Numbered from the stretch's first letter, positions 6,436 to 40,364 are shown. The stretch: DNA of 64,000 bases from Gemmatimonadota bacterium (GCA_039584685.1 JBDGXI010000003.1:10556-74555), one strand, 5' to 3'. The notes: generated from the letters alone by a model not told the origin. Translations and numbers: made by a program.

Positions 6436-7835
6436 GAGGCCCCTCCGTCTGCTGGCAGGGCCCGGAACGCGGCCTCGAACGCGCACCCGCGCTCGCGATA
6501 GTTCCGGAACATGTCGTAGCTGCTGCAAGCCGGAGACAGGAGCACGACATCGCCAGGCCGGGCCAGCTCGGCTGCGGCCCGGACTACGGCGTCGATTCCG
6601 CCGTGAACCTCCACGGTGTCCGCGACGCCTGCGAGATCGGATACGATGCGGGGAGCAGCTTCACCGTAGGCTACCGCAGCCCGCGCCCGCGCGCTCAGGT
6701 CTGCTGCCAGGCTCGAGTAAGGCTCTCCCTTGTGTTTGCCCCCGAGGATCAACACCACCGGGCGGTCGAAGGAGCGCAGCGCCACGGCCGTGGCGGAGAC
6801 GTTCGTGGCCTTCGAGTCGTTCACCCACAACACCTCATCCCGCTCGCCGATGGGCTGCAGCCGATGCGGGAGCGCCTCGAAGGTGGACAGGCCGGCGGCG
6901 ATCGCCTCGGGCTCGACACCGGCCAGGGCACAGGCGAGGCCCGCCGCCAGGGCGTTGGCCACGTTGTGTGGTCCCAGCAGCCGCAGATCCGCAGCCGGCA
7001 TCCACTCGACCTCGGTATCGAGTCGGCAGCGGAGAATTCCGTCGGATCCTGCCCACGCTCCCCGGTCAACCGGTCCGCGCATCGAAAAGACGTCGTGCTC
7101 GCCTTCGACGCCGGCCGCAAGCTCTAGGGAGTCGGGATCGTCTGCGTTCAAGACCCACCGTGAATCGGCGGAGGCCCCGTCGAACAGGCGCCGCTTGTCG
7201 GCGTAGTAGCTCTCGACGTCCGGATACCGGTCCAGGTGGTCGGGCGACAGATTGAGCAGGACCCCGATGTCCGGACTCACGGTCTCGTGATCCGCCAGTT
7301 GGAAACTGGACAGCTCGAGTGCCACCCACTCGGGCTGCCGGTCCTGCAGGACGATCTCGGACAGCGCGAGCCCGATGTTGCCGGCGGCGCTGGCCTGCAA
7401 ACCGCCAGCCTCGAGCACGTGAGCGACGAGTCCGGTCGTCGTGGTCTTGCCGTTGGTGCCGGTGATCGCGATCACCCGGCTCTCGAGGTAGCGCCAGGCC
7501 AACTCGACCTCCGCGATCGTCCGGATGCCGGCGTCGTCTATCCGACGCCTGATATCGGATTCCGGTCCGATCCCGGGACTCACGATCACCAGGTCCGCGG
7601 ACAGCACGCGCTGCACATCGTGCTGCCCCGTTTCCGCGTCGATCCCCACGGCTGCCAGCCGCGCAGCAGCTGCGGACGGACCCGGGTCCGTCGATACGTC
7701 ACTGGAGTACACGAGCCCGCCCTCGGCGGCCGCGAGGCGGGAGGCCGCCTCACCGGAAACGCCGAGCCCTAGCACCGCCACGGCGGAGCCAGCGGGGAAA
7801 GCCGGCAACCGGGTCCGAGCACGCGTCGCCCTCAT
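6432..7835 (-). CDS. murD: UDP-N-acetylmuramoylalanine--D-glutamate ligase
   Basis: ORF 6432..7919 (-). VAVLGLGVSGEAASRLAA, ITGTNGKTTTTGL. Internal Met at 7835 gives an ATGA overlap with the mraY stop (7832). Confidence 0.85.
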   Translation of the reverse strand: MRATRARTRLPAFPAGSAVAVLGLGVSGEAASRLAAAEGGLVYSSDVSTDPGPSAAAARLAAVGIDAETGQHDVQRVLSADLVIVSPGIGPESDIRRRIDDAGIRTIAEVELAWRYLESRVIAITGTNGKTTTTGLVAHVLEAGGLQASAAGNIGLALSEIVLQDRQPEWVALELSSFQLADHETVSPDIGVLLNLSPDHLDRYPDVESYYADKRRLFDGASADSRWVLNADDPDSLELAAGVEGEHDVFSMRGPVDRGAWAGSDGILRCRLDTEVEWMPAADLRLLGPHNVANALAAGLACALAGVEPEAIAAGLSTFEALPHRLQPIGERDEVLWVNDSKATNVSATAVALRSFDRPVVLILGGKHKGEPYSSLAADLSARARAAVAYGEAAPRIVSDLAGVADTVEVHGGIDAVVRAAAELARPGDVVLLSPACSSYDMFRNYRERGCAFEAAFRALPADGGAS

Positions 7836-8938: not shown

Positions 8939-10299
8939 CAGCCCTCTCCTCCGGTGAGCGAGTCGATCACCCGCTCGAGCTTCATCGCCCGGGAAGCCTT
9001 CACCAGCAGGACCTCGTCACCGTTCAGTCGGTCTGCCAACACTGCGGCTGCCACCTCCACGGACGGGGGGCACAGCACGGTCACCCCATCGGGGAGAGAC
9101 AGGTCCTGGAAGGCGGGCTGGAAGGCACCGAGGGCCACCACCAGAGAGAATCCCGATCGCAGCAGGTCGGCTGCCACCTGTGCGTGCGCCGGAGCCTCGG
9201 CCGATCCGAGCTCCAGCATGCTGCCGGTCACCGCAGCTAGTCGCCGGCCGGGAAACGCCTCGGAGCAGTAGCGGATCGCTGCTGCGAAAGACTCGGGGTT
9301 CGCGTTGTAGCAGTCCGCGACGATCGTGAGCGACCCGATCTCGACCAGCGCCCCCCGGAAGCCGATCGGGCGGTAACCGGCCAGTCCCTCGGCGACCCCT
9401 TGCGGACTCACGCCGAGTCCCTGTGCGGTCGCAGCGGCGATCAGAGCATCCCGGAGATGATGCTCTCCGCCCACCGAGACCGAGTAGTCCGTTCCCGCGT
9501 GCGTGAAGCGGGCCCACGTCGAGCCGACGTCCCACTCGGAGGGACGGAACTCGCAGTCGGGACCGAGCCCCGCGACGATCACATCGGACCGGACTTCCCT
9601 GGCCGCTCGCGGAAGGTCCTCGGGGAGTTCTCCGACCACGGCGCAGCCTGCGGTGGAGGCTCCGCGCAACAGGTCGAGCTTCTCCTCCAGTACCCCCGAC
9701 AAGTCTCCGAGACCCTCGAGGTGCGCCGCGCCCACGGTCGTGATCACCGCATCATCGGGCTCGGCGATCGACGTGAGGCGCCGGATCTCACCGGGCTCGC
9801 TCGTGCCCAGTTCGAGCACCCACACCTGCGAGCCTTCTTCCGCGCCGAGGATGGAAAGAGGAAGCCCTACCTGATTGTTCAGGTTGCCCTCGGTGGCGTG
9901 CACGTGCCTCTCCGACTCGAGGGCCCGCGCCAGCATTTCCTTCACCGTGGTCTTCCCGGATGACCCGGTCACGCCGACGACCCTCACACCGCACCGCCGA
10001 CGGTAGTAGCGAGCCAGGTCTCCGAGCGCGGCCGTCGTGTCTGCCACGGTGAATACGGGGAAACCGACCGCCGGTCCAGCCGCTGACACGGGGACTACCG
10101 CTCCAGCCGCACCCATGCGCTCGGCCTGTTCGACGAAATCGGTTCCATCGAAGCGCTCGCCCTGGAGCGCGACGAACAGCGCGCCGGGATGCAGATCACG
10201 CGTATCGGTCGATACCGACGAGAACTCGCGGGCCGGCCCGTCCTCGGGGAGGTCGAGAGCCCGACTGATCTCGGCTGCCGTGAACCGGGCGGCCATCAC
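8938..10299 (-). CDS. murF: UDP-N-acetylmuramoyl-tripeptide--D-alanyl-D-alanine ligase
   Basis: ORF 8938..10299 (-), 453 aa. VTGSSGKTTVKEM Mur ligase P-loop. The start overlaps the murE stop. Confidence 0.9.
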   Translation of the reverse strand: MMAARFTAAEISRALDLPEDGPAREFSSVSTDTRDLHPGALFVALQGERFDGTDFVEQAERMGAAGAVVPVSAAGPAVGFPVFTVADTTAALGDLARYYRRRCGVRVVGVTGSSGKTTVKEMLARALESERHVHATEGNLNNQVGLPLSILGAEEGSQVWVLELGTSEPGEIRRLTSIAEPDDAVITTVGAAHLEGLGDLSGVLEEKLDLLRGASTAGCAVVGELPEDLPRAAREVRSDVIVAGLGPDCEFRPSEWDVGSTWARFTHAGTDYSVSVGGEHHLRDALIAAATAQGLGVSPQGVAEGLAGYRPIGFRGALVEIGSLTIVADCYNANPESFAAAIRYCSEAFPGRRLAAVTGSMLELGSAEAPAHAQVAADLLRSGFSLVVALGAFQPAFQDLSLPDGVTVLCPPSVEVAAAVLADRLNGDEVLLVKASRAMKLERVIDSLTGGEG

Positions 10300-11825
10300 C
10301 GCGAGACTCCGGTCACGCGGGCTCTCACGATGGCCGCCTCGTCGAACGGTATCCGCTCACCGGCGATGTCCTGGTACGTCTCGTGTCCTTTCCCGGCCAG
10401 CACCACGACGTCGCCGGCACCGGCATCCCGCAAAGCAGCGTCGATCGCCTCTTCCCGGTCGAGTACCACCCGGTAGGAGCCGGGGGGCATGTCGCGTGTG
10501 ATGTCGGCGCAGATATCGGCCGGATCTTCGGACCTTGGATTGTCCGTCGTAATGAAGGCCAGGTCGGCGTAGCGCGCGGCTATCTGTCCCATCAGTGGGC
10601 GTTTGCCCCGATCCCTGTCCCCTCCGCACCCGAACACGATGTACAGGCCCCCGTCAGTCAATCCGGCCAGGGTCTCCAGCACCCTCGTGTACGCGTCCGG
10701 TGTGTGCATGTAGTCGCGGAGAACGAGTGCAGGTCGATCGCACAGCACTTCCATGCGGCCGGGAACCTGAGGCGCGGTAGCCAGTCGGTCGGCGGCCACA
10801 CCCGGCTCGACGCCCAGGGCGAGCGCCGCGGTCACTGCGGCCAGCGCGTTGTGAACGTTGAACTCGCCCAGCAGCGGCAACCGCACCGGCCACTTGCCCT
10901 CGCGAGTCACCAGGTCCCAGTCGCTCCCGGCCGCCGTATGGTGCACGGCCGTGGCACGGACCTCGGCCGAGCTTCCAAGTCCATATCGAACGACTCGTCG
11001 CCCGGCAAAGTCCGCCCCGGACCAGGCCTCGTCGTCGTCGTTCACGGCACACGTACCCTCGAGACGAACCTGGTCAGCGAGACGGAGCTTGGCCGTCCGG
11101 TACGCAGCCAGATCCGGATGATAGTCCAGGTGCTCCCGCGTGAGGTTCGTATATACGCCCACGTCGAACTCCAGGCCGGCGACCCGCCTCTGATCGAGAG
11201 CGTGCGACGATACTTCCATGGTCACGAAACGGGTGCCCTCATCCCGTAGCTCGCGGAGAGTCGCCATGAGATCGAGCGGGTCCGGCGTGGTAAGGCGGCC
11301 CGGATGCCGCTCGCCGGCCGTATCGAACCACCCGAGGGTTCCCAGGGCAGCCGAAGGTGCTTCCGCGGCCAGGATGTGTCGGGTGATCAGGGCGGTGGTC
11401 GTCTTGCCGTTGGTGCCGGTGATCCCCACGAGCGAGAGCCCGGTGGCCGGGTCGCCGTGCAGCATGGAAGCCGCGTGGGCCGTGGCGGCGCGCGTATCGG
11501 ACACCACCAGCTGGGGCAGATCCGTATCCGCCTGGGCCACATCGACCAGGGCCGCGACCGCTCCGGCGGTCGCGGCCCGTGCGACGAAAGCGTGTCCGTC
11601 GAACTCGGTCCCGCGCAGTGCGCAGAACAGGATACCGGGCTGCACCTCCCGGGAGTCCGTGACAACGCCGGCGAATCCGGGCGGAGGGGTTCCCTCCCAC
11701 CGCGGAGCCAGCCCGCGCTCCTGCAGTCTGCGTTCGAGGTCTCGTGTCTGTATCACACCCGGATTCGTTTCAGCATTCCTGTTGCTCGTGGCCTCGGCTA
11801 CGCCGACCGCAGGTTTTCGGCGCAT
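10296..11825 (-). CDS. murE: UDP-N-acetylmuramoyl-L-alanyl-D-glutamate--2,6-diaminopimelate ligase
   Basis: ORF 10296..11825 (-), 509 aa. ITGTNGKTTTALI, DNPRSEDP (MurE-specific motif). Confidence 0.9.
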   Translation of the reverse strand: MRRKPAVGVAEATSNRNAETNPGVIQTRDLERRLQERGLAPRWEGTPPPGFAGVVTDSREVQPGILFCALRGTEFDGHAFVARAATAGAVAALVDVAQADTDLPQLVVSDTRAATAHAASMLHGDPATGLSLVGITGTNGKTTTALITRHILAAEAPSAALGTLGWFDTAGERHPGRLTTPDPLDLMATLRELRDEGTRFVTMEVSSHALDQRRVAGLEFDVGVYTNLTREHLDYHPDLAAYRTAKLRLADQVRLEGTCAVNDDDEAWSGADFAGRRVVRYGLGSSAEVRATAVHHTAAGSDWDLVTREGKWPVRLPLLGEFNVHNALAAVTAALALGVEPGVAADRLATAPQVPGRMEVLCDRPALVLRDYMHTPDAYTRVLETLAGLTDGGLYIVFGCGGDRDRGKRPLMGQIAARYADLAFITTDNPRSEDPADICADITRDMPPGSYRVVLDREEAIDAALRDAGAGDVVVLAGKGHETYQDIAGERIPFDEAAIVRARVTGVSR

Positions 11826-11826
11826 G

Positions 11827-13809
11827 TCAACGCAGAAGGATGGTCGCGCCGCGCACTACTCGCGTTGCCGCCGCCGGCTCCTGCCGCGTCACCCGGCCGG
11901 AAGCCAGGAGCTCGACCCGCAGCCCCAACTCGTGAAGTCGGGCGACGGCGATTCGCGTCTCGAGTCCCTTCAGGTCTGGAAGCCTCAGCTTCCGCTCCAT
12001 GTCGCTCGCTCCGGCCGCTTGCTCGACGGCCGCCAGCCGATAGGGAGACTCCACATTCTGCTGCGCATCCCAATCGAGTCGGGCCCTGTTGCGAGCGGCC
12101 GCCCCCGTTTCGATCAGACCGAGCCCCCGCGTCGCGAGGATCGCCTGCACGACGGTACGCGTTACTGGAGCCGCCGTAAGACCCCCGTACACGGAACCCT
12201 GCGGATCCTCCAGCTTCGCCATGATCACGAGCCGGGGATCTTCCACCGGGGTGTAGCCGACGAAGGAATCTTCCACCGGGGTGTAGCCGACGAAGGACGC
12301 GGCGTAGCGTAGATTTGCATAGCCACCGTCCGACGCGATGCGGGCCGTCCCGGTCTTGCCCGCGATCTTGAGGGTCGCCAGGGAAGCCCCGGTGCCGGTC
12401 CCACCGTCCCCTACCGCGGCCTCCAACACGCCGGAGATCCGGCGCGCGGTGCTGCGGTCGATGACCCGACGAATCGGCTCAGGCTCGAGCCGCCAGCCCG
12501 ACGACTCCCCCTCGGTCCTGACTTCCCGCACCAGGGCCGGCTTCAGCAGGGTACCACCGTTGGCGAGCGCCCCGTACGCCATCACCAGTTGCAGGGAGGT
12601 CGTCAGCATCTCGTAGCCGATGGCGAGAGAGGCCTGGCTGAGGGCGGACCATCGATCCGGCCGACGGAGAAGGCCCGGAGACTCACCCGGAATCTCGATG
12701 CCGGTCGGCGTGCCGAAGCCGAAGTCGCGCAGATAGCGGTACTGTATGCCCGGTTGCAGACGATCCGAGAGCTTCGCCGCGCCGATATTGCTGGAGACCT
12801 GGATCACCTCGGCGACGCTGATCGTATCGTGCGGGTGCACGTCGGTGATCACCCTGTGCGCCGTCCGGTATTCGCCATGCTCCGCGTACACCCGGTCCTC
12901 GAGCCGGACGACACCCTCCCCGAGCAGGGTGGCGAGCAGAAACGGTTTGACCGTGGAGCCCGGCTCGTACGGCGACGTGAATGCAGGCACCGTTCCGGCG
13001 GCGCCCTCGCGGCGGGATGCGACCGCGAGGAGCTCTCCGGTCCTCGGATCGGCCATCAACACGTCCCCGCCGGACGACCCGGTCTGCTCCAACGCCACCT
13101 CCAGCGCCGCCTCGGCAATGGCCTGCAGGTTCGCATCGATAGTGAGATAGACGTCCCGACCGGACCTGGCGGGCGTCTGTGGACTCGCGGGAATCGGGTA
13201 CAGCTCGCCGCGGCCGTCGCGTCGCCCGACCAGCTCGCCGGGAGTGCCCCTGAGCAGTGTATCCAGGACGAGCTCGAGCCCCGATTGGCCTTGACCTTCA
13301 GTCGTCACCGTGCCCAGGAGGACTCGCGCCACCTCTCCTTCGGGATACACGCGCGTGAGGACCGGCTCGAATTCGACACCCGGGCCGACGGCCCGGGAAA
13401 GAGCCTCTCTCTGCCCCATCGAGACCTGCCCGATCGAGATCCAGCCGGTGGACCGGCTCGTCAATCGGCGCGCTTGCGAGCGTGACAGATCGAGAATCGC
13501 GGTAATGGCCTGGGCGTCGCGGCGGACATCAGCGGACTGTGCGGGAGCGAAGAACGCGCTGTATTCCTGTCGCGACAGGGCAAGGGCCTTACCGTTTCGA
13601 TCGTAGATCGCCCCCCGCACCGCAGGCAGCTCCACGGTCTCGGTCGTCTGGGTCCACGCCTGGGCCTGCCAGCGACCGCCCTGAACGATCTGGAGCTGAG
13701 CGGCGCGGCTTACGAACGCCGTGGCGAGAACGGCGAGCACGGCGGCGAACAACTGGGTCCGCCGCCCGTGGGTCTTCTTCGAGACCCTACGACGCTTGTT
13801 CGTTGCCAT
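11827..13809 (-). CDS. ftsI: peptidoglycan D,D-transpeptidase FtsI (PBP3)
   Basis: ORF 11827..13809 (-), 660 aa. N-terminal TM, transpeptidase motifs STVKP, SSN, KTGTA. Contains an in-frame 10-aa tandem duplication SFVGYTPVED x2 (see repeat feature). Confidence 0.9.
   Translation of the reverse strand: MATNKRRRVSKKTHGRRTQLFAAVLAVLATAFVSRAAQLQIVQGGRWQAQAWTQTTETVELPAVRGAIYDRNGKALALSRQEYSAFFAPAQSADVRRDAQAITAILDLSRSQARRLTSRSTGWISIGQVSMGQREALSRAVGPGVEFEPVLTRVYPEGEVARVLLGTVTTEGQGQSGLELVLDTLLRGTPGELVGRRDGRGELYPIPASPQTPARSGRDVYLTIDANLQAIAEAALEVALEQTGSSGGDVLMADPRTGELLAVASRREGAAGTVPAFTSPYEPGSTVKPFLLATLLGEGVVRLEDRVYAEHGEYRTAHRVITDVHPHDTISVAEVIQVSSNIGAAKLSDRLQPGIQYRYLRDFGFGTPTGIEIPGESPGLLRRPDRWSALSQASLAIGYEMLTTSLQLVMAYGALANGGTLLKPALVREVRTEGESSGWRLEPEPIRRVIDRSTARRISGVLEAAVGDGGTGTGASLATLKIAGKTGTARIASDGGYANLRYAASFVGYTPVEDSFVGYTPVEDPRLVIMAKLEDPQGSVYGGLTAAPVTRTVVQAILATRGLGLIETGAAARNRARLDWDAQQNVESPYRLAAVEQAAGASDMERKLRLPDLKGLETRIAVARLHELGLRVELLASGRVTRQEPAAATRVVRGATILLR
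12238..12297 (-). repeat. ftsI: perfect 30-bp direct tandem duplication (atcttccaccggggtgtagccgacgaagga x2) inside ftsI
   Basis: Two identical consecutive 30-mers read directly. In the ftsI frame they encode SFVGYTPVED twice. The region aligns with the conserved SF(I/V)G(F/Y)(A/T)P segment that follows the KTG motif of class B PBPs. Confidence 0.9.
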
Positions 13810-14210: not shown

Positions 14211-15145
14211 GCCCGAGCCCATCCGCGGAGCCTCGCGCTCCGCGCCCGTGGATTCGCGGCTACTTCCGCTTCCGACGGACGCAGAGGCTTCTTCGTCAGC
14301 CGGCGCCCCAGGGCCCGACCCCGGCACTTGCAGATCGGCCACTCCGGTGGGCAGACACATTCTCGACTCCACTCCCGGAACGTCTCTTTCACGATTCGAT
14401 CTTCCAGTGAGTGGTACGAGATGACGACCAGCCGCCCCTCCGTCGCGAGCAATTGCCCGATGGCTTCCAATCCCTCACGCAATGCTTCCAGCTCTTCGTT
14501 TACGGCGATCCGAACGGCCTGGAACAGGCGCGCCTTGTCCCTCTGGGCCAGGGGTCTCCGGAGCGCCGCCGAGGCAGCCGCGACGAGATCATCCGCGCTG
14601 CGCAGCGGTCGCTGCCCCCGGCGCCGGGCGATCTCCCGGGACATGGCCCGCCACTTCCTCTCCTCCCCGTAGTCCCGGAAGATCTTCCCCAGCTCTTCTT
14701 CAGACGCCGTGTTCAGCAAATCGGCCGCGGTTCTCCAACCACCGGTTGTCCCGCCCATCCGCATGTTTAACGGTGTGCCCCGGCGGAAGGAGAAACCGCG
14801 CGCCGTCGTGTCGATCTGGTGGGACGACACGCCCAGATCCAGCAGGGCTCCATCCAGACCGACGTCTATGTATTCCTCGACCAGCTCCGCAGCATCGCGG
14901 AAGTTCCCTGTCACCAAGCGTGCCCGATCTCCGAACACGGAGAGTCGCTTCCTGGCTGCGGCCACGGCTTCAGGATCCTGGTCCAGGCCGATCAGCGTCG
15001 CCGCTGGACTCGATTCCAGAATCCGTTCCGCGTGTCCCCCTCCGCCAACCGTGGCGTCGAGGAACTGCCCTCCCCGTTCTGGTTCGAGCAACCTCACCGT
15101 CTCATCCGCCATTACCGGGTGGTGCGAGAATGGCTGCCCACTCAT
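14207..15145 (-). CDS. rsmH: 16S rRNA (cytosine1402-N4)-methyltransferase
   Basis: ORF 14207..15145 (-), 312 aa. LDATVGGGGHAERIL (SAM-binding), DLGVSSHQID. The gene after mraZ. Confidence 0.9.
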   Translation of the reverse strand: MSGQPFSHHPVMADETVRLLEPERGGQFLDATVGGGGHAERILESSPAATLIGLDQDPEAVAAARKRLSVFGDRARLVTGNFRDAAELVEEYIDVGLDGALLDLGVSSHQIDTTARGFSFRRGTPLNMRMGGTTGGWRTAADLLNTASEEELGKIFRDYGEERKWRAMSREIARRRGQRPLRSADDLVAAASAALRRPLAQRDKARLFQAVRIAVNEELEALREGLEAIGQLLATEGRLVVISYHSLEDRIVKETFREWSRECVCPPEWPICKCRGRALGRRLTKKPLRPSEAEVAANPRARSARLRGWARA

Positions 15146-15829: not shown

Positions 15830-17581
15830 TCAGCCTCCGCAGTTCTTTCGGATGATCTGCTCCTGCCGATAGATGTACACGTCAGTGCTCTCGCGGATCT
15901 GCGCCTGGCTCTGCGGCTGTTCGGCGCCGGCCCGGTCGAGGTTCGGGAGAACCTGCTGGAACTTCGACAGCGCGCGGCGGGCCGGCTGGCACGCCTCGTT
16001 CGCCTCGTTCGCCCCGTCGATCGATACCCCCTGCTGGTAGTAGCCGTAGGCCGTGAAGAAGTACAGCTGGTCTCTTACCCGGCCGGCGCTTGCCAGATCG
16101 GTGCCGACCTCGAACATCGCGAGCGCCTCGTCATACCGTCCGGTCTTGAAGAAGTCGTTGTAGCCGCGCGCCAGCAATTGGCCCGCCACCACCTCGACAT
16201 CCGCTCCCTGTGCGACCGCGGTTTCGAGGTCCGCCGTTCCTCCCTGCGAATCGCCGGAGCGAAGCTTCAGGAAGCCGCGCCTGAGATACGCGTTCGGGTA
16301 AGCCGGATCGAGTTCGAGCGTTCGATCCAAGGCCGCGACCGCGTCGTCGTACCTCTCCATGCGCCCGTAGATGTCGCTCCGGATCGACCACAGGCCGGCG
16401 TCCTCCGGCATCAGGGCCTGAGCCCGGTCCGCGAACGTGAGCGCAGCATCGAAGTCACCAAGTTCCAGGTTCGCGGCGATCACGTTGCGGAGAATCTCGG
16501 GATTCATGTCTTCTCCCTTGAGCTCCAGAACGTGGTCGTAGGCTTCGACCGCGAGTCGAACGGCCGCTTCGTCCGCTATGGCACCCGTATCCTCCATCGC
16601 GTCCTCCGCCGCCGTCGTGCCCTTCTTGAGCGCCACGTTGCCGAGGAACTCCCACAGCTCGGCGTTCGTCGAATCGATCGCGATACCTTCCTGCAGGAGA
16701 TCGATGGCCTCGTCCTCGCCGCCCGCCTGAGCGAGCTCGAAAGCGACCGTCATGCGAACGCTCGCATCCGCGGGATTGAAGTTCAGGTACTCCCGGTAGA
16801 GCTCGACCGCGCGCTCCATGTCGCCCATCTGGGCGTAGACGTACGCCAGGGCGTTCAGGGCATCTACCTCGGCCGGGTTCTTCTCGATCACGATCGCGAG
16901 GTCGTCCGCAGCCTCCGTCCAACTCTCCAGTCCCATGTACACGCGCCCGCGCAGGTAATGCCCGGTGGTGCTCTCGGCATTCGTGCTCAACGCCTCGTCG
17001 CAGTTGCGAAGAGCGTCGTCATACTGCTCGGCCGCGAGGTAGTCCTGGCAGAATAGAAGAGCACGCCGATAGTCCACCTGGTCGCTGAACGCGGTCACGA
17101 TCACGCCGGACGCCTGTCTCACGTCATCATTCCCGTCGCCGGGAACGATGAAGCCCGGCACGTCGACCTCGTCACCGCTCTTGGAATCTACGAAGCTGAC
17201 GCTGACCTCGTTCCCGCCCGCGGCAGAGGCGACACCGCCCGTCATCACGACATCCGCATTGAGACGTCCGGCGAGCTGTCTCCACTGGATGAGGCCGAGA
17301 TCCTCTTCCTTCAGCTTCAGCCGGCGCAGCTCATCCTTGACTTCGTTCCAGTCGATGGCGATGAGCGTCGGAATCTCCTCCAGGCCGTCCCGTACCTCTT
17401 CGGCGATCTTCTTGCCGAAGTCCTTTTTGACGGAACCGTCGACCTGCAGGGGAGCCACTAGCACCCGGGCTCGACCGCCCGCGCCGCCATCCTGTGCCAC
17501 GGCGGTGCCAGCGGCAAACACGAGTGAGGCAGCCGCAACGGCCAGGCCTTGCCCGCCCCAGTAACGAATCGCACGCTTCAT
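15830..17581 (-). CDS. secreted tetratricopeptide-repeat (TPR) protein
   Basis: ORF 15830..18031 (-), but the real start is the internal ATG at 17579-17581 (MKRAIRYWGGQGLAVAAASLVFAAGTAVAQ signal peptide, GAGGA SD 8 nt upstream). The upstream part of the ORF reads through the tRNA-Val gene. The body contains multiple TPR-like repeats (AEVDALNALAYVYAQMGDMERAVELYREYLNFNP...). Confidence 0.75.
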   Translation of the reverse strand: MKRAIRYWGGQGLAVAAASLVFAAGTAVAQDGGAGGRARVLVAPLQVDGSVKKDFGKKIAEEVRDGLEEIPTLIAIDWNEVKDELRRLKLKEEDLGLIQWRQLAGRLNADVVMTGGVASAAGGNEVSVSFVDSKSGDEVDVPGFIVPGDGNDDVRQASGVIVTAFSDQVDYRRALLFCQDYLAAEQYDDALRNCDEALSTNAESTTGHYLRGRVYMGLESWTEAADDLAIVIEKNPAEVDALNALAYVYAQMGDMERAVELYREYLNFNPADASVRMTVAFELAQAGGEDEAIDLLQEGIAIDSTNAELWEFLGNVALKKGTTAAEDAMEDTGAIADEAAVRLAVEAYDHVLELKGEDMNPEILRNVIAANLELGDFDAALTFADRAQALMPEDAGLWSIRSDIYGRMERYDDAVAALDRTLELDPAYPNAYLRRGFLKLRSGDSQGGTADLETAVAQGADVEVVAGQLLARGYNDFFKTGRYDEALAMFEVGTDLASAGRVRDQLYFFTAYGYYQQGVSIDGANEANEACQPARRALSKFQQVLPNLDRAGAEQPQSQAQIRESTDVYIYRQEQIIRKNCGG

Positions 17582-32409: not shown

Positions 32410-33826
32410 GTCGCAACTCGAACTCCAGCAGGGAAGTCGGGAAGGCGGGGCCGCGGTTCGTCTCGGCCGTGGCCAGTCCTTCGACCCATAGAATGTTGCC
32501 CAAGCGGTCCGCCAGCACCGGCAACCCGGCCCGTTCACTGACGGGAATTCGTCGGTCGCCGAACAGCTTCTTGAGCTTCCGTGTTCCCCCGGCGAGCCGA
32601 ATCCTGTCTCCCTCTCTCCAACCCCTGAACATCAAGGGATAATGACCCGGCGACACGGCCACGGCAATCCGCTCCGGGAGGGACGCTCCGGCCGATACGG
32701 GCCTCCAACTGACTTCCAACGCGCGTTCCCCGATCCGCATCGACCCGCTCCCGGCTCGCTCGTGCACGAGCAACTCGTCGGCAGGCGCCTGCGGCGCTTC
32801 CCGCGCGACGACAATGCGGTCGAACTCCCTCCAGACCTGCAGACCGCCTCCGACCATCACGCGTCCGCCGCTACGGCCCTCGCTGATAAACTCGACCCCG
32901 GCCCGGGTTCCTCCGGCGGTGAGCGAGACTCCCTGAGCGCGAGCCAACGCGCGCAGGGCGATGGCCAGCAGCTCGGGGCCTCCGCGGGCGATACGGTGTC
33001 GGTCCAGCTCGATTCGTCCCTGGCGCGCCTGCCGGGGCGCGGCTTCGAGCAGCAGGGCTGCGGCGGCCCGCTCGCCGAGCTCGTGCGCCCGGGCCGCCGC
33101 CTGGCCGAGCTGCACGAGATGACGCACCGTTTCCGGTTCGACGCTCTCCAGGGCGGGGATGGCTTCGGTCCGGAGACGGACCCGGGCCCAGCGTCGATCC
33201 GTGTTGGAAGGATCATCGATCCACCGCACCCCGCGGCCTTCCAGGTACTGGCTAAGCTCCCGGCGCCGAAACGGCAGAAGCGGGCGGACGATCGGCCCTC
33301 TCCGGGCGGGGACACCGGCGAGCCCCCTGAGATCAGCGCCCCGCATGATTCGAAACAACACGGTCTCGGCCTGGTCATCCGCGTGGTGCCCGACGGCCAG
33401 GCGGTCCGCTCCTGTGCCGCGCACAACCGTGTCCAACCACCGGTAGCGGACGCGGCGCAGGGTAGCCTGACTCACCTTCGGGGGGATTCGCGGTCTTCCG
33501 ACGTGGCAGGGGACGCCCACATCGGCCGCGAGCTCGCGCGTTCGTGAGGCATCGCGCTCGGAACCGACGCGGACTCGGTGATCGAAGTGGGCCGCTTCGA
33601 GCCGCAGGTCCAGATCGGACGAGAGATCGGAGAGCAAGTGCAACAGCGCGGTCGAGTCGGGACCGCCCGACAGCCCCACGATGACCTTCGACCCCGGCGG
33701 AATCAATTCGGGCTCGGCTGCAAGATGGGAGTGCAGGACGCCCGGAAGTCCCTGGCGAACGACGGTGCGCCGCGGGGTCAGGTTGACGGTCCTTCCTCCC
33801 TCGACGAACCCCGGCCATCGCGCCAT
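32402..33826 (-). CDS. tilS: tRNA(Ile)-lysidine synthetase
   Basis: ORF 32402..33925 (-). VIVGLSGGPDSTALLHLL PP-loop. Start uncertain. I chose the internal Met (MARWPGF...) ~25 aa before the PP-loop. Confidence 0.8.
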   Translation of the reverse strand: MARWPGFVEGGRTVNLTPRRTVVRQGLPGVLHSHLAAEPELIPPGSKVIVGLSGGPDSTALLHLLSDLSSDLDLRLEAAHFDHRVRVGSERDASRTRELAADVGVPCHVGRPRIPPKVSQATLRRVRYRWLDTVVRGTGADRLAVGHHADDQAETVLFRIMRGADLRGLAGVPARRGPIVRPLLPFRRRELSQYLEGRGVRWIDDPSNTDRRWARVRLRTEAIPALESVEPETVRHLVQLGQAAARAHELGERAAAALLLEAAPRQARQGRIELDRHRIARGGPELLAIALRALARAQGVSLTAGGTRAGVEFISEGRSGGRVMVGGGLQVWREFDRIVVAREAPQAPADELLVHERAGSGSMRIGERALEVSWRPVSAGASLPERIAVAVSPGHYPLMFRGWREGDRIRLAGGTRKLKKLFGDRRIPVSERAGLPVLADRLGNILWVEGLATAETNRGPAFPTSLLEFELRHE

Positions 33827-37883: not shown

Positions 37884-38312
37884 TCAGACGTCCAGGGGCT
37901 GCGGCTGCTGCGCCGCGTGCGGGTGCTCCGCCCCCGGGTATACCTTCAGCTTCTGAGCCATCTGGCGCCCGAGACTGTTCTTCGGGAGCATCCCCTTCAC
38001 AGCCCTCTCGATCACGCGCTCGGGATGTCGCTTGATCATCGTCTCAAACGGGATCATGCGCTCGCCGCCCATGTAACCACTGTGGCGGAAGTACTCCTTC
38101 TGCTCGGCCTTCCGGCCCGTGAGGCGCACGTTCCGCGCGTTCACCACCACCACGTAGTCGCCCACGTCGAGGTGCGGACTGAACGTCGGCTTGTGCTTGC
38201 CTCTCAGTACGGTGGCCAGGCGCGTGGCCAGGCGCCCCAGGACCTGGTCCGTAGCGTCGACGACGAACCAGTCTCGCTGGATCTCACCTGCCTTGACCGA
38301 ATACGTCTTCAT
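37884..38312 (-). CDS. rplM: 50S ribosomal protein L13
   Basis: ORF 37884..38312 (-), 142 aa. [30 protein letters not shown]. Confidence 0.9.
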
Positions 38313-40149: not shown

Positions 40150-40364
40150 TCTCGTGTACGCCTGTCTGAATGTGCCCGCTCTCGAAACTCCGTTCGCGGC
40201 CCGCCACAATCGCGGCAGGGCCCGCACCATACCGTCGGGTGGAAACCTACCCCCTGATTCGATCGCGCGTTCCCCGCGTCCACCGCCCTGCCAGGGACAC
40301 TACAATACGTAGGCAAGGTGGGCCGCGCACTCAACTCCGCGTCAACTGGCGGCGTCGTCGGAGC

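Follow-up and report, generated by a model that had tools for sequence, protein, structure and literature searches.

An ftsI-type gene in DNA from an uncultured marine Gemmatimonadota bacterium of coastal sediment carried a perfect 30-bp in-frame tandem duplication, which very probably arose as a local assembly error of IDBA-UD at a strain-variant branch point, as judged from sequence comparisons. The observations behind this reading were that the duplication occurred in one record only, similar events were present in sibling assemblies, the repeat lay directly beside a strain SNP, and the siblings had been assembled with IDBA-UD. The 64,000-nt stretch analysed is referred to as the window, and all positions are those of the window unless stated otherwise. 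Features around the repeat and the related duplications in tilS are listed in Table 1.

Table 1. Coordinates of the ftsI-type gene, its tandem repeat and related features
Feature	Position	Strand	Basis or remark
ftsI-type class B PBP gene (660 aa deposited, 650 aa in all sibling assemblies)	11827..13809	-	ORF, Pfam, context, fold
KTG motif, K485-T486-G487, start of strand beta3	12349..12357	-	reverse complement of cccggtctt = AAG ACC GGG
Strain SNP site abutting the repeat	12298	.	C in window and most siblings, A in L005; synonymous, Ala504 GCG->GCT
Upstream-in-gene copy, residues 505-514, SFVGYTPVED	12268..12297	-	sequence, TRF, alignment
Downstream-in-gene copy, residues 515-524	12238..12267	-	sequence, TRF, alignment, AF2 model
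tilS duplications	L015 1494-1587 (47 bp) and 1755-1816 (30 bp); window ~32655 and ~32441		private to L015

The 660-aa protein predicted for this gene contained, according to Pfam, an N-terminal PBP dimerisation (pedestal) domain (PBP_dimer, PF03717, residues 61-202, E 1e-15), a C-terminal transpeptidase domain (PF00905, residues 250-554, E 3.9e-57) and a PASTA domain (residues 610-659). The active-site motifs SxxK (S285-T-V-K288), SxN (S339-S-N341) and KTG fell in alignment columns that were invariant or nearly so, those of K485 and G487 being invariant. Sibling loci had, by Pfam labels, the dcw order mraZ-rsmH-ftsL-PBP-murE-murF-mraY-murD-ftsW-murG-murC-murB, and the PBP gene was flanked in sibling contigs by a small ftsL-like ORF and murE. 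Compared with the NCBIfam equivalog and subfamily models for FtsI, SpoVD and PenA, the protein reached no curated cut-off (SpoVD, 300.9 bits versus 688; FtsI PRK15105, 184.8 versus 737). Named by architecture and context, the product is classed as a divergent FtsI-type class B PBP that lies outside the narrow NCBIfam models. The best Foldseek matches of its AlphaFold2 (AF2) model were structures of Pseudomonas aeruginosa PBP3 (TMt 0.82-0.85), and the closest solved homolog by sequence was Neisseria gonorrhoeae PBP2 (3EQU, E 4e-64).

Class B PBPs with a PASTA domain are typically those of Firmicutes and Actinobacteria. The PASTA domain of this Gemmatimonadota protein, encoded at 11827-12010, was kept in 113 of 113 relatives, and SpoVD was the best NCBIfam match, below the cut-off. 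The start of the adjoining murE differed by gene caller (L001 12135 versus L027 18205; window 11825-12010): the JGI annotation gave a 449-aa product starting 180 bp past the PBP stop, and that of NCBI a 509-aa product with its start adjoining the PBP stop (window ORF 10296-11825).

The duplication had been noticed in a sequence-only reading of the window, and TRF, direct reading and the ORF all bore it out. TRF reported a period of 30 with 2.0 copies, 100% matches and 0 indels at 12238..12297; the unit, also read directly from the window, was ATCTTCCACCGGGGTGTAGCCGACGAAGGA, and the junction between copy 1 and copy 2 read ...CGACGAAGGA / ATCTTCCACC..., or, given otherwise, ...GTAGCCGACGAAGGA / ATCTTCCACCGGGGT... 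The repeat was in frame within the minus-strand ORF, so that SFVGYTPVED was encoded twice. It could not be slid by one base in either direction and therefore had no microhomology at its ends. Perfect period-30 duplications are expected by chance about 1e-12 times in 64 kb at the 66.5% GC composition, and a chance origin is excluded; it was also the sole perfect tandem duplication of at least 13 bp within the window. The window was free of Ns, hence no scaffold join was marked in this way, and the two copies were directly adjacent. The exact 660-aa product was public (P0121, in NCBI and JGI/IMG) on a single contig of 89,872 bp; thus, the duplication belongs to the deposited record and not to the preparation of the window. 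A perfect 12-bp tandem repeat of two copies, GCGCCTGGCCAC, was present at 38212-38235 in rplM, encoding ribosomal protein L13. This repeat was found in all sibling assemblies and is thus a natural feature, in contrast to the private repeat in ftsI.

The repeat had also been placed just past the KTGTA motif, in the strand corresponding to SFIGFAP of class B PBPs, and both the alignment with 3EQU and the AF2 model agreed with this position. It began 15 residues past KTGTA (K485-A489) and spanned the conserved SF[VI]G[FY]xP strand beta4 and the beta4-beta5 turn; in the alignment, the repeated peptide corresponded to T517-N526 of gonococcal PBP2, which form strand beta4 and the beta4-beta5 turn.

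The best database match, P0001, was a 650-aa protein identical to the 660-aa form minus 10 residues and was encoded on contigs from seven JGI samples (3300041074, -78, -79, -81, -83, -84 and -87) and one Logan assembly. The 60-bp form was not found in any other assembly of the population, a single copy being present in L001-L007, L013, L027, L028 and L030; the duplicated form occurred in one of at least nine population assemblies, as a single record. Relatives at 98, 92, 88, 85 and down to 50% identity had one copy each. In a 114-sequence alignment, none of the 113 homologs (50-98% identity) had a residue in the insert columns, and the spacing between R490 and P525 was 24 aa in 112 of the 113, a spacing of 34 aa being seen only in the window protein. 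The downstream-in-gene copy aligned with the single copy of all homologs, while the upstream-in-gene copy was without counterpart in any homolog alignment. Such strict conservation of length, as seen in the alignment, argues against tolerance of a variant of this kind. Whether the 10-aa insert was lineage-wide had been raised as a check in the sequence-only reading, and the comparison answered it in the negative. That the insert is old and belongs to the ordinary FtsI of the Gemmatimonadota clade is excluded: nothing was found in favour, it was missing in the closest relatives and in all homologs aligned as well as in the siblings, and the two copies were 100% identical at the DNA level.

Sibling contigs from independent assemblies of the population, about 273 kb in total, were compared with the window over 1.8-56 kb. 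They shared 99.75-100% DNA identity with the window, the SNPs forming a mosaic. Within the range compared, the ftsI duplication was the only indel private to the window, and no other difference was seen within about 800 bp on one side of the repeat. SNPs private to the window were present in rluD, and these were synonymous. Five indels of at least 30 bp were present in the total, each private to one assembly; three were perfect tandem duplications (30, 47 and 30 bp) and two were deletions (84 and 96 bp). Two of the duplications lay in tilS of L015 (JGI sample 3300041087), with 47 bp x 2.0 and 30 bp x 2.1 copies, of which the 47-bp duplication shifted the reading frame of TilS and led to a premature stop, the gene being called as products of 413 and 86 aa. 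Both are very likely to have entered the deposited MAG scaffold through misassembly. In L003 (sample 3300041078), a private 96-bp deletion in murD (at 17062/17063, window 6622-6717) created an in-frame TAG and removed the C-terminus of MurD (363 aa called versus 449); it is probably a local assembly error as well. The private 84-bp deletion in L005 (sample 3300041074; at 472/473, window 14279-14362) was in frame, removed 28 conserved C-terminal residues of RsmH at the 3' end of the gene, and lay 472 bp from the contig end. Another contig from the same sample, L014, ended inside rsmH, indicating that this region was a break point of the assembly graph in that sample. Neither deletion had microhomology at its ends.

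Since tilS and murD are core genes, their broken forms cannot be the dominant genotype; it is not credible that the main scaffold of an abundant population should bear disrupted core genes. The implausibility of these forms indicates that local errors recur in the assembly series at a background rate of roughly one in 55 kb, and that some of them take the form of perfect tandem duplications tens of bases long. A 1-bp (T) indel at 40362 was of another kind: it was common to L017 and L026, absent from the window and L016, and located in the intergenic spacer just past a 213-aa ORF, and it looks like a genuine population polymorphism. Three ENA contigs, L020, L021 and L022 (ERZ6864078, ERZ6863978 and ERZ6863929), had the frr-tilS core in common with the window and diverged strongly toward one end, being either chimeric contigs or from a more distant strain; these contigs were excluded when indels were counted, as MAFFT forced large spurious gaps there.

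SNP sites are branch points of the de Bruijn graph when strains co-occur, and concatenation of overlapping pieces without trimming of the overlap duplicates the bases adjoining the branch. The duplicated unit in the window was exactly the 30 nt preceding the SNP at 12298 (plus strand), its copy at 12268..12297 being the one that adjoined this site. L005 had an alternative haplotype of three SNPs, all synonymous (12298 C>A, 12316 T>C and 12355 C>T), of which that at 12298 came first; on the other side of the repeat, the next SNP was about 800 bp off, at 11496. A similar placement was seen in L015, where the two tilS duplications bracketed a block of seven SNPs (window 32439-32540): the 30-bp unit started right past the last SNP of the block, at 32439, and the 47-bp unit lay on the opposite side, 68 nt before the first SNP. 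The same seven-SNP block was also present in L017 and L021, there without the duplications. For a random 30-bp unit, the probability of abutting an SNP column was p = 0.0048, and about 2e-5 for two such events. The 47-bp duplication and both deletions abutted no known SNP. Because the assemblies were SNP mosaics, a haplotype switch at the junction could not serve as a sign of a chimeric join.

The sibling contigs also figure in NCBI as scaffolds of MAGs (GCA_039585215.1 and others), named in the manner of M3-2_Bin_396_scaffold_455. They belong to the Bohai Sea sediment metagenomes (GOLD Gs0149406; BioProject PRJNA743900; IMG taxon ids around 3300041074-3300041088), which comprise 15 samples from stations BHB10, M3 and M8, with about 930 million reads per sample; they were assembled with IDBA-UD v1.0.9, and scaffolds of at least 2 kb were submitted to IMG (PMC12345210). 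Gemmatimonadota MAGs of the series are described in PMC11316326. From the 99.87% identity and the NCBI and JGI sources, we infer that the contig of the window came from the same IDBA-UD series, presumably from one of the 15 samples other than the seven with single-copy contigs. Local assembly errors of IDBA-UD are known to include duplicate sequence at scaffold joins with overlapping flanks, and 13 such errors were found in a 1.13-Mb genome (Chen, Anantharaman, Shaiber, Eren and Banfield 2020, Genome Res; PMC7111523). Such errors are defined by a lack of read support. The errors described there resemble the present case in the assembler (that of the sibling series), in being private to one assembly, in the duplication of sequence at a join, and in being associated with mixtures of strains, which confound de Bruijn graphs; the rates are also comparable in magnitude, at 13 per 1.13 Mb versus about 5 per 273 kb here. 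They differ in having Ns between the duplicated flanks, whereas the copies in ftsI are directly adjacent.

The duplication could thus have been produced as follows. Two closely related strains of one Gemmatimonadota population would have coexisted in the source sample and differed at 12298 and two nearby sites, so that the assembly graph would have branched exactly at 12298. A piece ending at the branch and a piece running through it would have had the 30 nt just before the SNP in common, and if both pieces were joined end to end with the overlap kept, these 30 nt would be written twice. The real ftsI of the organism would then be the 650-aa, single-copy gene of every other assembly. As regards the overlap of exactly 30 nt, the default seed k-mer of IDBA-UD is 30, and during local assembly k is raised in steps of five. 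An untrimmed overlap of k-1 at k = 31 fits both 30-bp events, but it does not fit the 47-bp duplication, nor is 31 a default main k of IDBA-UD; the model is kept as a lead only.

The sequence-only reading had left three origins side by side, namely an assembly artefact, a very recent event and an adaptive insertion. An artefact is favoured because the siblings were single-copy, other private indels occurred in the series, the repeat was placed exactly at an SNP, and the sibling assemblies came from IDBA-UD; a recent event stays as its rival, and nothing in the comparison of siblings and homologs pointed to a role that is adaptive or related to beta-lactams. Some features count against an artefact. 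The duplication was in frame, which an artefact would achieve by chance in one case out of three; a PBP could plausibly tolerate extra residues at this position, the model keeping its fold; and no Ns marked the join, while the 47-bp duplication and both deletions were away from known SNPs. The rival reading, that of a real and very recent 30-bp duplication for which the population is polymorphic and which prevails in a single sediment sample, likewise draws on the in-frame position, on the zero divergence between the copies, and on the fact that a de Bruijn assembler normally requires read-derived junction k-mers to write a tandem repeat. FtsI would then have gained 10 residues, with one copy serving as beta4 and the other lengthening the beta3-beta4 loop or the beta4-beta5 hairpin near the active site, and the effect could be neutral, mildly harmful or adaptive through altered substrate or beta-lactam acylation. 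It is nevertheless unlikely: the form was seen in one of at least nine assemblies and in 0 of 113 homologs of a family in which the length of the segment is almost invariant, the exact adjacency to an SNP (p about 0.005) has no biological rationale, and identical-looking private duplications break tilS in a sibling assembly. The absence of microhomology leaves nothing at the repeat ends to drive slippage, and slippage at microhomology was rejected as a mechanism. A chimera formed in the library or during sequencing, for instance by PCR or ligation, and taken up into the assembly where coverage was low, would also be expected to give private duplications and deletions without microhomology. However, it leaves unexplained both the exact placement of the two 30-bp duplications at SNP branches and the bracketing of a haplotype block by the two duplications of L015, and with about 930 million reads per sample (PMC12345210) a single chimeric read would be unlikely to win; such an origin is very improbable.

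The structural evidence for a real duplication came from the AF2 model built with the 114-sequence alignment (mean pLDDT 80.7, pTM 0.78), which retained the PBP3-like fold. Strands beta3, beta4 and beta5 were predicted at residues 483-490, 512-520 and 527-534, respectively, beta4 being formed by copy 2 and the tail of copy 1, and residues 493-509, comprising the native loop and most of copy 1, formed a flexible loop with pLDDT below 50. According to the model, the fold could survive with a beta3-beta4 loop of about 24 residues in place of 14. Modelling of the insert had been proposed in the sequence-only reading; it was informative on the fold, but not on which copy forms beta4, a choice that was dictated by the input alignment and is not independent evidence. 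In gonococcal PBP2, the beta3-beta4 loop 501-514 undergoes a conformational switch that governs cephalosporin acylation (PMC8503634), and the segment duplicated here begins 3 residues past this loop; by analogy, an effect of the lengthened loop on acylation is conceivable. The resistance determinants of PenA are point substitutions (such as F504L, N512Y and G545S), whereas the change here is one of length, and no length variant of the beta4 segment in the form of an insert was found among the 113 homologs.

Short in-frame duplications in E. coli PBP3 had been cited as known to alter beta-lactam susceptibility, and the literature supports this: 12-nt duplications in ftsI (YRIN/YRIK/YRIP), which are under selection, lower susceptibility to aztreonam-avibactam (PMC9674307). 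Like the repeat in the window, they are short, in-frame and perfect tandem duplications in the region for the transpeptidase domain. They differ in site (past residue 333, at 333-336, versus the beta4 strand past KTG), in length (4 versus 10 aa) and in recurrence, the E. coli insertions having come up under drug selection in numerous independent clinical isolates and the present one on a single metagenome scaffold, absent from at least seven sibling assemblies and the 113 homologs. The likeness, as far as the sequences go, is one of form only. A real gain of a beta4 duplication by a coastal-sediment strain, changing substrate or beta-lactam acylation of an essential divisome transpeptidase, would by analogy match the clinical E. 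coli insertions in an environmental setting and at a new position, but it appears quite improbable.

With an assembly error as the preferred reading, the biological weight of the duplication is small, since the FtsI of the organism is almost certainly an ordinary one of 650 aa, and the consequences lie in data quality. Through its entries in NCBI and IMG, the 660-aa protein will be propagated as a 'variant PBP3', and in about 270 kb the same assembly series contains no fewer than four other local errors affecting core genes (tilS, murD and rsmH). In MAGs assembled with IDBA-UD, perfect tandem duplications that are tens of bases long and show zero divergence are suspect until confirmed by reads, above all where they directly adjoin strain SNPs. 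Comparison of sibling assemblies, combined with the test for SNP adjacency, provides a read-free screen for such errors.
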